Shown piece by piece: positions 8,750 through 30,172 of a stretch of DNA of 34,501 nucleotides (the first letter of the stretch is position 1; each line of letters starts with the position of its first letter). The position numbers were made by a program, and so were the translations under genes. The notes under the pieces were generated by a model, which was given only the letters and a program-made list of their open reading frames with translations, was not told the origin of the DNA and made no database searches. Source of the DNA: Reclinomonas americana ATCC 50394 (lineage: Eukaryota); the NCBI GenBank assembly GCA_048213135.1, contig PS015012.1:86301-120801 (forward strand), written 5' to 3'.

Positions 8750-11700
8750 TTAGCGGAAACCGCGGTAGCTGGCAACCGGCGGCAGGTTGGAGGCAAAGTT
8801 GCCACCGCCACCACGGCCGCCGCCACCACCACGGTAGCCACCATAACCACCACCACCACCGCGACCGTAGCGGGGATTGCCCGACGGGCCACGCGATGAC
8901 ATGGCCATGGACTGCAGGTCCGGCGGCACCTCACCACCGGCCTCACGCAGAATCTTGACAATGTCGCGTGCCAGCTTGGCGTCCTTGACGCGGTCAAAGA
9001 ACGAGTACGACACACCACGGGCACCAGCACGGCCTGTGCGGCCAATGCGATGCACGTAGTCCTCGGCGTTGTTCGGCATGTCGTAGTTGACCACGTGCGT
9101 GATATCCTTGACATCTGCACAAAGTGAAGCGAACGCACAAGGCGCACAGCGAAAAAAGAGACACAAGAATGGCACACGGATTAACAACGATGACGACAAC
9201 AGCAACACCAATGACGCAGCAAACACACACACACGCACAAAAGCCCATGCCCAACAGACACACAAAGGAAAGGAAGAAGAACAAGAGAAGAGAGAGAAGG
9301 AAAGTGAAGAAAGAGAGTATAGATATACACAGCGAGAAAGGAAAAGGCACCACCACCGCCCAGCCCGCCACAAAAACCACCATCCGTCGTCGCCACCACC
9401 ACCACCACCACTGCCACCAGCCACCACCGCCAATCTTTTCTTCACGGCGCGCGCGCGCGCGCGCAAGCCGAGGTACACGACGCCGACCGTCGTGCTCGGC
9501 TCCAAAATGCGCGCAACGCAGGATGGAAGGAAAATAAAAGAGCGGAAAAAAAGGCGAGCAAAAGAGAGAAAAAGGACTCGGACTACCGACAGGATCCAAT
9601 CTCACATCGTGAGGGAATGCAGTAGCCAAATCACTCGTCTCTCCCCTCCCACCTCCCTCCACTCTCCTCCTCCTCCACCCCGGCACGCACGAAACTTGCG
9701 CGACACATCAAACGAGTGCGCGCAAGCGTGCGCACACACACACATAAAGGCGGTGGCTGGGTCGAGTCGGCCCCCAGCAGGCCGACCAAGGCAGTGGGCG
9801 TCTCGTACCTCGAAGAGCAGCACAGCACACGGTGGCGCCGGACCGACACACAGCAGTGTGCCGGCGCATGCCGGCCGCTCTTCGAATCAACAATAACAGT
9901 GGCGGTTGGCAGTGCGTGCACGCGCGCGCAACCACCGCTGCTGCCGATGCCTCGAGGCAGCAAGCAACAATGATCGCGCGCGCGCGCGCATGCACGCATG
10001 CGTGCGCCCAGAGAGAGGGCGCTGACAACGGATTCTTCGAGGGGTGGCCAGAGGCTCCGGCAGCTGCAACAACCACGCACACACACACACACACACACAT
10101 GCCCAACGACACAAATCCCCACACACATAGATTCAACCCGCCCCACACTTACCGAGACCACGAGCAGCCACGTCCGTCGCCACCATAATGGGATGAGTGC
10201 CGGTCTTGAACTCGGCGAGCACCCAGTCGCGCTCCTGCTGCGTCTTGTCGCCGTGAATCGCCAGCGCCGGGAAGCCGTCCATGCGCAGATCGCGAGTGAT
10301 CTGGTCGGCGTTCTTCTTGGTCTCGCTGAAAATGATGACCTTGGACTTGCTGGAGGGCTGCATCACCTTTTCCAGCACCTTCATCAGGCTGTGGGTGGAG
10401 GAGAGGAGACGGCAGGGGGTAAGTATTGTGCAGCAGGAGGGAAGAAATGAAAAGTCGATAGAAAAGCACGCACCATCCGCGCTTCTGGTAGCCGTCGACA
10501 AACTCAAACAGCTGAGTCACGTTGTGGNNNNNNNNNNNNNNNNNNNNNNNNNNNNNNNNNNNNNNNNNNNNNNNNNNNNNNNNNNNNNNNNNNNNNNNNN
10601 NNNNNNNNNNNNNNNNNNNNNNNNNNNNNNNNNNNNNNNNNNNNNNNNNNNNNNNNNNNNNNNNNNNNNNNNNNNNNNNNNNNNNNNNNNNNNNNNNNNN
10701 NNNNNNNNNNNNNNNNNNNNNNNNNNNNNNNNNNNNNNNNNNNNNNNNNNNNNNNNNNNNNNNNNNNNNNNNNNNNNNNNNNNNNNNNNNNNNNNNNNNN
10801 NNNNNNNNNNNNNNNNNNNNNNNNNNNNNNNNNNNNNNNNNNNNNNNNNNNNNNNNNNNNNNNNNNNNNNNNNNNNNNNNNNNNNNNNNNNNNNNNNNNN
10901 NNNNNNNNNNNNNAAGTTTGAGCGCGACTTTTACTTTGAGCACCCCGACGTGACGGCGCGCACCGAGGAGGAGGTGGCTCAGTACCGTGCCTCGCGTGCC
11001 ATTGCGGTGCTGCGCGGCAACGCGCCCAAGCCGGTGACCACGTTTGAGGAGGCCGCCGTGCCCGAGTACCTGCTGAAGGAGCTGTACGCGGCCGGCTTCA
11101 CTCAGCCCACGCCCATTCAGGCGCAGGGCTGGCCCGTGGCACTCAAGGGTCTCGACATGGTCGGTCTGGCCGAGACCGGTTCCGGCAAGACGCTGGCCTA
11201 CTTGCTGCCGGCCATGGTCCACATCAACGCGCAGCCGTACCTGCAGCGCGGCGAGGGTCCGATTGCGCTGGTGCTGGCTCCCACCCGTGAGCTGGCCGTG
11301 CAGATCAAGGAGGAGTGCGCGCGTTTCGGCGCCTCGTCCAACATCAAGTGCACCTGCCTGTACGGTGGCGCACCCAAGGGGCCGCAGATGCGCGATCTGC
11401 GCAACGGCGTGGAGATTGTCATTGCGACACCGGGTCGCCTCATCGACATGCTGGAGGCGGGCAGCACCAACCTGCGCCGTGTCACCTACCTGGTGCTCGA
11501 CGAGGCCGATCGCATGCTCGACATGGGTTTCGAGCCCCAGATCCGCAAGATTGTCGGTCAGATTCGCCCCGACCGCCAGACGCTCATGTGGAGCGCCACC
11601 TGGCCGAAGGAGGTGCAAGGCCTCGCCCACGAGTTCTTCAAGTCGGGCGACCACGTCTGCGTCAACATTGGCTCGACGGACCTTGCCGCCAANNNNNNNN

Positions 11701-12496
11701 NNNNNNNNNNNNNNNNNNNNNNNNNNNNNNNNNNNNNNNNNNNNNNNNNNNNNNNNNNNNNNNNNNNNNNNNNNNNNNNNNNNNNNNNNNNNNNNNNNNN
11801 NNNNNNNNNNNNNNNNNNNNNNNNNNNNNNNNNNNNNNNNNNNNNNNNNNNNNNNNNNNNNNNNNNNNNNNNNNNNNNNNNNNNNNNNNNNNGGGCAGCT
11901 TCGACAGGTCCCAGTCGCGAATGTCGCGCAGGTTGGCGCCCAGCTGGCTCATCGAGTCGCCGCCGCCGCCAAAGCCACCGCCACCATAGCCGCCACCGCC
12001 ACTGCCACCGTAGCTGCTGCCGCCGCCGTAGCCTGTTAGGAGAAGAAAAAAGAGAAGAAAAGTGAGGACATGTGCAGATGCACATGCGCGTGGAGGAACA
12101 ACACAAAAAAAGCGAGAACGCACCACCACCGTAGCCACCACCCGAGGAGGAGCCACCACCATAGCCACCACCCGAGGAACCGCCATAGCCGCCAGCACCG
12201 CTGCCGCTGCCGCCTGTTCAAAGAAGAGTCAGCGCCCGATTTGGAAGCACGCACACAGAAAGGGAGCGCAACTGCCATAGCCGCCGCGCGATGACGACGA
12301 GCTGCTGCCGCCAAAGTCGCGGTCAGGGGAGCTGCGGAGTGAGCTGTGGTGACGTAAGCAAGAGAGAGAGTGTGAGTGAGTGATGGACATGGATCAAGTT
12401 GGAAATGACCCCCACTGCAAACCTCTTGCGATCAGAAGAGCGCGAGTAGCTGTCGTACTCACGGTCGGAACGTCCACGGTAGTCGCGATCAGACAT
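8750..12496 (-). CDS. DBP2: DEAD-box RNA helicase DBP2/p68 (DDX5/17); middle part lies inverted at 10914-11692
   Basis: G/Y-rich N-terminus, [60 protein letters not shown] and an RGG-rich C-terminus. Confidence 0.95.
10914..11692 (+). CDS. DBP2: Inverted segment of DBP2 (Q motif through motif III)
   Basis: [11 protein letters not shown]...[10 protein letters not shown]...AETGSGKT...LAPTRELA...TPGRL...[15 protein letters not shown]...SAT; lies on the opposite strand to the flanking DBP2 exons, between N gaps. Confidence 0.95.
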
Positions 12497-12773
12497 GTTT
12501 GGAGAGAAGAGGGATTTGTTGTCTGTGTGCGTGGAGCGCGCGAGAATTCAGTGATCACACACACTCAACGGGAAGAAAAGACACACGCCCACGCGAGTGG
12601 GAAAGGAGACAAGGGAGGGAACGCACTGGAAGAAAGTTGAAGTTGGAAGGGTTTCGCAAGTCGGAGGGATGCGAAGGGATAACGAATGCGTGCGAATGAG
12701 AAGCGAAGATAACTGGGTCGGTTGATTCGGCGGAGGTTCGAAATCACTTTTTTCACACACACACTCACACGCA

Positions 12774-29167: not shown

Positions 29168-29823
29168 GTACACCAGCAGCTGCACACACGCACACACTCC
29201 TTCACCTGTCTCCGTCGTCGTCCACTCACGCACTTGNNNNNNNNNNNNNNNNNNNNCCGTACCACAGTGCGCCGGCTCGAGCGTTCAGCCACCTGCCGGA
29301 GGAGCAGTCGACGGTGGCGGAGGAGATGGCACGCGACGCCCTGCGCGTGCACATGAGTCGGGCGTTTGCCAACAGCGCTGCCACACACGCCTCGAGCACC
29401 AGCAAGTCGAGTCGCATGTCGGCGCGCGGCTCGCCATCCCCCTGGGCGCCGCCTCAATCGTGTTCCTCTTCCACTGCGGTACGGCGACAGACTCGTCAGT
29501 GCGATCGCGCCAATGTGTGAGAGGCTGACGCCGGTGACATCAACAAGGTCATGACTCTCGAGGTTACGACGCACTCACGAGCGAACATTTGAGCTGCGCG
29601 CGACAAGCGCAGCTCGGCATCGGAACCAATCTTTCTTTTTTGCTTGACGACGGAAAGCACCCCGATGCAGTCGTCGAGTTATGATTGTCTCTCTTTTAAC
29701 CCTTTGCGCCTCGTTTTATGAAGTGAAACGCGATGACGTGTGAACGATTGATATTTTTTCATCCAAGAACATGAACCACGAGGCAACATACACGAGCGAG
29801 TGAAATGAGCAGCGACGACGCAC

Positions 29824-29936
29824 TCAGCCCGGATACACATTCCACAAGAACACACACATGTCGTCGCCGACGGAAACCAGTTGTCGGTCGTCGGGTGAGA
29901 ATTGTACACGATTGATGGCCGCCGAGTGACCAATGC
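29824..29936 (-). CDS. Terminal exon of the CFAP52-family gene on an inverted contig
   Basis: G|GC ATT GGT CAC gives EGIGHSAAINRVQFSPDDRQLVSVGDDMCVFLWNVYPG*, completing the last WD repeat. Confidence 0.9.
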
Positions 29937-30172
29937 CTGCGTGGTGCACGNNNNNNNNNNNNNNNNNNNNNNNNNNNNNNNNNNNNNNNNNNNNNNNNNN
30001 NNNNNNNNNNNNNNNNNNNNNNNNNNNNNNNNNNNNNNNNNNNNNNNNNNNNNNNNNNNNNNNNNNNNNNNNNNNNNNNNNNNNNNNNNNNNNNNNNNNN
30101 NNNNNNNNNNNNNNNNNNNNNNNNNNNNNNNNNNNNNNNNNNNNNNNNNNNNNNNNNNNNNNNNNNNNNNNN

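Follow-up and report, generated by a model that had tools for sequence, protein, structure and literature searches.

Short gap-flanked contigs on the opposite strand to their genes in a 34.5-kb window of Reclinomonas americana: a probable orientation artefact of assembly

Are several genes of Reclinomonas americana interrupted by segments that are inverted in the DNA itself, or were short contigs written on the wrong strand during assembly? The question is raised by a 34.5-kb stretch of the genome assembly (34,501 nucleotides, hereafter the window), in which five gap-flanked segments had been read, from the letters alone, as lying in the right order and the wrong orientation within genes. A count on the printed sequence divides the window into 12 contigs and 11 N runs. 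The five segments are its five smallest contigs (779, 686, 761, 1127 and 694 bases), the five below 1.2 kb, each with N runs on both sides. The follow-up analysis bore out this first observation, as the coding strand is opposite to that of the rest of the gene in 5/5 segments, which are parts of DBP2, a UAP56-like gene (two contigs), an ORC3-like gene (with weaker support) and a CFAP52/FAP196-like gene together with its neighbour. The inverted arrangement is very probably an assembly or scaffolding orientation artefact, for which we infer a cause in the software, and the genes in the real DNA are most probably collinear.

Reversed contigs in two helicase genes

The middle of DBP2 is one uninterrupted coding block on the forward strand of a 779-base contig (10914..11692). 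Pfam identified a DEAD domain at 10914-11690 (+, E 2.3e-50), the DBP2 profile matched with positions 54-310, and the block was also matched by tblastn with P0010, P0012, P0013 and P0034. The other parts of the gene are encoded on the reverse strand. The 3' part (8753..10527, −) comprises a short exon at the contig end, followed by intron-split Helicase_C exons, and was recognised by Pfam (Helicase_C positions 3-79 and 75-110, located at 8753-10516, −), by tblastn and by its GT donors. The 5' part (11893..12228, −), as delineated by the open frame, the seam alignment and a codon score of 0.35, encodes a Gly-rich N-terminus and ends exactly at the contig start. When homologue P0010 was aligned by tblastn, residues 54-309 matched the forward strand, and residues 328-403 and 399-482 the reverse strand. 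Flipping 10914-11692 in place renders both DBP2 seams base-exact, with zero indels relative to seven homologues, which we picked out of 120. Of 80 metagenome loci with DBP2 relatives, 75 encode the two helicase domains on the same strand and 0 on opposed strands; the other 5 lack the second domain. The metagenomes contained no DBP2 relative closer than 78% identity, and therefore no second copy of the locus. A 30-base string taken from the start of a contig had 0 exact matches in metagenome_contigs.

The UAP56-like gene is divergent from DBP2. Its 5' exons are probably contained in 12726..13442 (+), as suggested by a codon score of 0.17 and by the join with position 14668; the final 13 bases, which follow an acceptor, reach the contig end. 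A 686-base contig printed in reverse (13983..14668, −) carries an exon at ~14570-14668 (profile positions 40-72; hmmsearch E 3.1e-8), after which a donor opens an intron. The DEAD domain is encoded by a 761-base contig, likewise printed in reverse (14793..15553, −; Pfam DEAD E 3.4e-33; UAP56 profile positions 69-245, E 2e-74), which terminates inside an intron starting GTTGCGT. As printed, the UAP56 profile is out of order, with positions 40-72 on the reverse strand at 14468-14668 and positions 69-245 on the same strand at 14796-15515. Flipping the two contigs singly puts the order right, and with 14668 reverse-complemented and attached to 13442, the profile match extends from 40-72 to 29-72 and its score rises from 28.2 to 32.9 bits. 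Inversion of both contigs as one block was rejected, as the order comes out wrong. Swapping them without flipping was likewise rejected; both gene ends stay missing and the seam at 13442 is lost. For profile positions 246-426, a profile search and a motif scan of the whole window found no match beyond DBP2's own C-terminus. In place of this missing C-terminal helicase half, at least ~543 bases, the printed sequence has a run of 20 N (15554..15573).

A ciliary WD40 gene, its neighbour and an ORC3-like gene

The CFAP52/FAP196-like WD40 gene extends over 26660..29236 (+) without its last exon. This assignment is based on Pfam WD40 matches and on tblastn with P0241, a protein matching the FAP196 and CFAP52 chains end to end, of which residues 8-585 map to 26660-29199 (+). 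The last WD40 exon (~29827-29936, −) lies in a 694-base contig printed in reverse (29257..29950), where P0241 residues 577-609 match at 29931-29833 (−, 58% identity, E 2e-8) and an acceptor CAG stands 14 bases from the contig end. Searches against solved structures gave 0 matches for the 42-aa last WD exon and for a 25-aa flank piece, only generic WD40 proteins for a 55-aa WD exon, and only Gly-rich linkers for a 56-aa flank piece. The same contig carries the final 87 codons of the adjacent gene (29257-29517, +). That gene is otherwise a 460-codon open frame in the ORF list, running into the contig start (30173..31552, −), and was assigned no Pfam family. Once the small contig is flipped, the frame runs on to a stop, and the continuation has a codon score of -0.015 vs -0.47 as printed.

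The middle and 3' part of an ORC3-like gene were located at 15898..19016 (−) by Pfam matches to ORC_WH_C (E 2.5e-9) and ORC3_N (positions 195-311), the latter being weak (E 0.0022, below the Pfam cut-off). A 1127-base contig (19330..20456, +, printed in reverse) is the probable 5' part. It holds an acidic low-complexity stretch, one GT-AG intron and a G18 run, and its assignment draws on the end overlap, the open frame and the codon score. The end at 19016 and the end at 20456, the latter reverse-complemented, have 15 bases exactly in common (16 if one mismatch is allowed), spanning a homopolymer run. When neighbouring contigs were compared in every combination of orientations, no other end overlap reached 9 bases. 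Merging on these 15 bases joins two long frames in phase, giving 378 codons. The codon score is slightly better on the forward strand (-0.03, vs -0.12 to -0.36 on the reverse strand). A 280-aa ORC3-like piece had 0 matches at E up to 0.001 among 1.84 billion representatives, and Pfam at E up to 10 returned no family for the ORC3 5' piece, the last WD exon or the UAP56 exon. The flip would thus follow from sequence logic alone in the ORC3-like gene, and is less well supported than in the other genes.

Seams, gaps and contig size

In-place flipping restores collinearity with homologues in DBP2, the UAP56-like gene and the CFAP52/FAP196-like gene. Each of the five segments begins and ends at an N run, and within a contig no gene switches strand. 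The 10 segment ends make up 9 distinct joins, two of the small contigs being neighbours, and a seam test was obtained for 7 of the 9, all but 13983|15553 and 19330|20477. A seam was shown at four joins, namely both in DBP2, 13442|14668 and 19016|20456 with its 15-base overlap. At two more the sequence is consistent with one: an intron with its acceptor spans 29236|29950, and at 29257|30173 the frame stays open for another 87 codons before it meets a stop. Three seams (both in DBP2 and 13442|14668) are zero-base seams. The sequence-only reading had described the rejoining as seamless, which was confirmed at the four joins but fails at 14793|15574, where UAP56-like DNA is missing instead. Apart from 15553/15574, nothing or almost nothing is missing at the checkable seams. 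Pointer repeats had been reported lacking, and indeed 0 bases are shared at the three coding seams; only 19016/20456 shares its 15.

The same reading had claimed that small contigs are flipped and larger ones are not. For contigs below 1.2 kb this applies without exception, 5/5 being discordant with a large neighbour. For the larger ones it stands on two checkable links, neither of them discordant (1-10527 with 11893-13442, and 24637-29236 with 30173-31553). Random flipping of five out of the ten internal contigs would hit exactly the five smallest in 1 of 252 cases.

N runs in the window are 20 to 540 long, and together with contigs of ~1 kb such variable runs point to read-pair scaffolding. 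Their lengths err in both directions: 313 N were printed over ends that overlap, and 20 N over at least 181 missing codons. With 20 N standing for the whole C-terminal half of the UAP56-like helicase, N-run lengths must be regarded as unreliable.

Origin of the printed arrangement and its parallels

Several rival explanations have to be weighed, two of which accept the strand as an artefact. The orientation of short contigs may have followed no systematic rule, being left undetermined (entered as 'unknown' in the scaffold description, for instance) and the contigs written out just as they stood, so that about half would be wrong genome-wide and the window would be a bad draw. Short contigs do hold little linking information, and their misorientation is a scaffolder weakness described in the HiC-Hiker paper (PMC7672694), in its treatment of such errors. 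Nevertheless, 5/5 wrong would be expected in 1 of 32 cases under random orientation, which makes this account unlikely; as the count exceeds random orientation, the favoured artefact reading has to assume a specific bug or convention, which counts against it. Somewhat more doubtful is the proposal that the N runs at coding seams (200-540, their lengths then being roughly right) each conceal an intron that failed to assemble, such as a repeated introner-like element. It would explain why contigs stop exactly where coding sequence can be cut, and most N runs are intron-like in length (87-540), introns of ~75 to 1060 bases being seen in the window. The sequence around the seams argues against it: the seam at 13442 lies 13 bases past an acceptor, and a hidden intron would reduce the exon to these 13 bases; the exons at the seams end in A, C and C, whereas five of the six donors read in the window are preceded by G and the sixth is of the GTTGCGT class; and the ends at 19016/20456 overlap despite the 313 N printed between them.

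The third explanation takes the printed arrangement as real DNA, in which inverted pieces of essential genes, 0.7-1.1 kb long, lie between unassembled spacers and are put right by DNA rearrangement, or in which both orientations occur in the population; scrambled ciliate germline genes and invertible DNA segments would be the models. Precise excision and rejoining would need base-exact seams such as those found at three places. Three seams with zero overlap and zero loss are not usual for contig breaks from low coverage and imply a branch of the assembly graph at just these positions; both junction types may be present among the reads, which would suit a real rearrangement. One seam also has a 15-base repeat in inverted orientation, for which a meeting of two contig ends in the G18 run is the simpler explanation. 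Against these points, the three coding seams share no pointer (overlap 0 bases) and 4/5 segments are without flanking inverted repeats. In the three regions searched, only the repeat 19002-19016 / 20441-20455 touches contig ends, the inner flanks consisting of N that may hide repeats. A scan of 249 ORFs, out of 402 with at least 55 aa, detected no recombinase, integrase or transposase family at E up to 0.01. Moreover, the effect is limited to the smallest contigs, a feature of the assembly rather than of genes, N-run lengths are demonstrably unreliable, and the affected genes are conserved housekeeping genes. The standard stops and the 58-60% G+C of the window are also unlike ciliate germlines. 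If true, such a rearrangement would mean scrambled genes outside ciliates, in the DBP2, UAP56-like, ORC3-like and ciliary WD40 genes of an intron-dense flagellate; on this evidence we regard it as highly improbable. Trans-splicing of split genes would call for splice signals and pairing intron halves beside each piece, where the printed sequence consists of N.

An orientation artefact of assembly, which the earlier reading had already judged likelier than a biological cause, is favoured by every indirect test run, although the word seamless overlooked the hole at 15553/15574. In such a scenario, the assembler would have cut a locus of low contiguity into contigs. A later step would have kept the contig order right and written the five short contigs (0.7-1.1 kb) on the wrong strand, inserting N runs whose lengths carry little information, and a contig of at least ~0.5 kb would have been left out at 15553/15574. 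Two specific causes were considered and rejected. In the Velvet node format, a twin node printed by mistake would move the flipped contig by k-1 bases. Such a de Bruijn misprint does not fit the two DBP2 seams, which are exact and show no shift of this kind. Contamination of mate-pair libraries by paired-end fragments, a known source of difficulty with small contigs, should swap contig order and keep the strand, in agreement with the cases presented in the BESST update preprint (10.1101/025650).

The biological import is most probably negligible, the genes being in all likelihood ordinary and collinear. For annotation, at least five genes of the 34.5-kb window would be predicted wrongly, as fragments that are cut short or run into antisense sequence. 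A change of strand at an N run in the Reclinomonas americana assembly should not be taken as a rearrangement. If the rule that a short gap-flanked contig is on the wrong strand holds assembly-wide, flipping guided by homology or open frames, with a check against reads, would recover many gene models of a poorly sampled protist.

In Oxytricha and its relatives, scrambled macronuclear-destined germline segments end in short pointers common to consecutive pieces. The window resembles ciliate scrambled genes in that misoriented pieces lie apart and give an intact frame once reoriented and joined. Unlike in ciliates, no base is common to the two sides at 3/4 checkable seams, the pieces always keep their order, the smallest contigs alone are involved and every boundary is a gap in the assembly. 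Among scaffold errors, misorientation of short contigs has been described before, and such contigs in the 3D-DNA output discussed in the HiC-Hiker paper share with the present case a correct order, a wrong strand and a position between correctly oriented longer contigs; broken gene prediction is stated there as a consequence (PMC7672694). The scaffolds treated in that account are built from Hi-C data with contigs of tens of kb and fixed gaps, and a fraction of contigs is wrong, whereas here contigs are ~1 kb, N runs vary from 20 to 540 and 5/5 are wrong. A case in the BESST update preprint, which calls same-strand pairs invalid, is similar in that small contigs between large 'border' contigs are misplaced and gap sizes are unreliable (10.1101/025650). 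In the case as given in that preprint, a paired-end link mistaken for a mate-pair link leads to contig order being swapped and relative strand kept; in the window, order is kept and strand reversed.

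Contigs and gene content of the window

The window holds 11 N runs of 20 to 540 N and therefore comprises 12 contigs; its G+C content, gaps excluded, is 58-60%. The internal contigs measure, in order, 779, 1550, 686, 761, 3443, 1127, 4073, 4600, 694 and 1381 bases. The five segments that a sequence-only reading had described as inverted inside genes (10914-11692, 13983-14668, 14793-15553, 19330-20456 and 29257-29950) are precisely the five contigs below 1.2 kb.

The DNA is eukaryotic, intron-bearing and gene-dense, with GT-AG introns, a GTTGCGT donor class among them. Housekeeping and ciliary genes are densely packed at 254-8516 and 21165-26559; they encode ARP2/3 p16-Arc (-), a Cid1-type poly(A) polymerase (-), RNA polymerase subunit N (+), prefoldin (-), ribosomal protein L13e (+), PACRG (-) and a GT90 glycosyltransferase (+). 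The gene for PACRG, the parkin co-regulated protein, lies less than 3 kb from a CFAP52/FAP196-like gene, and two ciliary doublet inner junction proteins are thus encoded side by side.

Inverted pieces of two helicase genes

The DEAD domain of DBP2 was located on the plus strand at 10914-11690 (Pfam, E 2.3e-50) and the two halves of its Helicase_C domain on the minus strand at 10136-10516 and 8753-9601 (Pfam). Homologues map residues 54-309 to the plus strand and residues 328-403 and 399-482 to the minus strand; a profile built from the first 70 homologues of 455-620 residues in length agrees, placing the middle on plus and the C-terminal parts on minus. Among the full-length homologues retrieved with the middle piece, identity does not exceed 76%, so there is no near-identical protein for it. 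The gene was rejoined by script (reverse complement of 11893-12060, 10914-11692 as printed, reverse complement of 10400-10527), and the translation was aligned with seven homologues, hand-picked out of 120. Neither seam carries an insertion or deletion, so the inversion of the piece is exact to the base and no codon is lost. The second seam falls within a codon, which rejoining restores. Two DBP2-like proteins, P0007 and P0008, are 67-70% identical to this piece; their source, a fish genome record, labels them unverified contaminants.

DBP2 (-) and the UAP56-like gene (+), both DEAD-box helicase genes, lie head to head at 11893-12850, about 500 bases separating their apparent coding starts. 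Long (CA)n/(TG)n tracts lie in introns at 9100-10165 and 12990-13020, and the 1.06-kb intron of DBP2 is strongly A-rich on the plus strand, its sense strand being rich in T and G.

A UAP56 profile, built from 70 of 89 homologues with 420-440 residues, matched the minus strand at 14468-14668 (positions 40-72, E 3.1e-8) and 14796-15515 (positions 69-245, E 2e-74). In the printed sequence, that strand encodes the later stretch of the protein ahead of the earlier one. The correct order, on the plus strand, is recovered when each contig is flipped on its own; inversion of the two contigs as one block was rejected, as it does not restore the order. When 13442 is joined to the reverse complement of 14668, the match grows to positions 29-72 and from 28.2 to 32.9 bits, while the printed join scores below zero. 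Positions 246-426, the entire C-terminal helicase domain, are absent from the whole window, DBP2's own domain excepted, and the end of the ORC3-like gene lies only about 330 bases past the 20-N run at 15554-15573; therefore, the join at this run is not seamless. The gap in the gene at this point amounts to at least 181 codons, in addition to any introns. Thus, the claim that the segments are inverted and rejoin seamlessly when flipped is largely right, but seamlessness fails where half of the UAP56-like gene is missing. Either this gene is a truncated copy, or it is a divergent paralogue whose second half lies on an unplaced contig.

Identity between the UAP56-like gene and UAP56/DDX39B proteins is only about 52%, a low value for the family. 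At 14835 (-) one of its exons ends in CAGAAC, followed by GTTGCGTG, a shifted donor class; the other five donors read in the window are preceded by G and start GTAAGT, GTGCGT, GTGAGC or GTACAC.

The ORC3-like and CFAP52/FAP196-like genes

The ORC3-like gene (15898-20456) is extremely divergent and was named by ORC_WH_C (-, Pfam, E 2.5e-9) and a weak, sub-threshold match to ORC3_N positions 195-311 (-, E 0.0022), both within contig 15574-19016. A search with a 280-residue piece against 1.84 billion representative proteins gave no hit at E up to 0.001, and the 1127-base contig (19330-20456) has no Pfam match; homology therefore cannot place the front of the gene on that contig. However, 19002-19016 and the reverse complement of 20441-20455 share 15 identical bases (16 with a mismatch at the last base), spanning 18 consecutive G. 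No other end overlap of at least 9 bases exists across all four orientation combinations of the 11 neighbouring pairs. Merging on it brings frames of 97 and 281 codons into phase, giving 378 open codons. Read from the assembled bases, the overlap and the in-phase frame do show the ORC3-like join 19016|20456. A codon model, fitted to 13 segments with homology support and choosing the true frame in 13/13 leave-one-out trials, weakly favours the plus frame of the contig (-0.03 per codon; minus frames -0.12 to -0.36). The probable front of the gene encodes a long acidic Ser/Asp/Glu stretch, the 18 G lying in frame.

P0241, a 613-residue relative matching Chlamydomonas FAP196 and CFAP52 chains end to end, maps with residues 8-585 to 26660-29199 (+) and residues 577-609 to 29931-29833 (-; 58% identity, E 2e-8). 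The large contig 24637-29236 stops about 70 bases inside an intron of this gene, and the acceptor lies in the 694-base contig, 14 bases from its end. Once this contig is flipped, the neighbouring gene (30173-31552, -, a 460-codon frame of no family) extends by 87 codons to a stop; the codon score of the continuation is -0.015, near the gene's own 0.03, against -0.47 as printed. The last WD40 part and the neighbour's frame both end on this small contig, where two convergent genes thus have their 3' ends.

Origin of the inverted arrangement

The coding evidence for inversion is deterministic, not statistical. All five small contigs oppose a gene-linked large neighbour, in keeping with the suggestion that every contig below 1.2 kb is flipped. 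That larger ones are not flipped holds at the only two large-to-large links testable by genes, both concordant (1-10527 with 11893-13442; 24637-29236 with 30173-31553), a count that leaves out 15574-19016, 20477-24549 and 31896-34501. Randomly flipping five of the ten internal contigs would hit the five smallest and no others in 1 of 252 draws, and random orientation of the small contigs would give five wrong out of five with a chance of 1 in 32.

Coding seams might hide introns whose ends coincide with contig ends. A hidden intron at 13442 would, however, leave a 13-base exon; exon ends at the three seams are A, C and C, whereas five of the six donors read in the window follow G; and the contig ends at 19016/20456 overlap. 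At three seams the contigs abut exactly, no base being shared or lost, which would point to a branch of the assembly graph there, such as haplotype bubbles or the presence of both junction types in the reads. Paired-end contamination of mate-pair libraries was rejected as the cause: by our reasoning, with which 10.1101/025650 agrees, it swaps order, not strand.

That the inverted arrangement is an assembly artefact is well supported, though not proven. Strand switches at N runs only, with contig order kept throughout, argue for it, as do the one end overlap and the unreliable N-run lengths, which err both ways (313 N where ends overlap, 20 N where at least 0.5 kb is lacking). The three coding seams lack pointers, the short repeats at the ends of consecutive scrambled segments in ciliates, as the sequence-only reading had noted; flanking inverted repeats are absent at four of the five segments, and recombinase families among the 249 scanned of 402 ORFs of at least 55 aa. 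Moreover, the genes affected by the flipped contigs are conserved housekeeping genes. In 80 metagenome loci with DBP2 relatives, none of them close, the two domains share a strand in 75 and are opposed in none, the second domain being absent in five. Misorientation of short contigs is a described weakness of scaffolding (PMC7672694), and this likewise supports an artefact.
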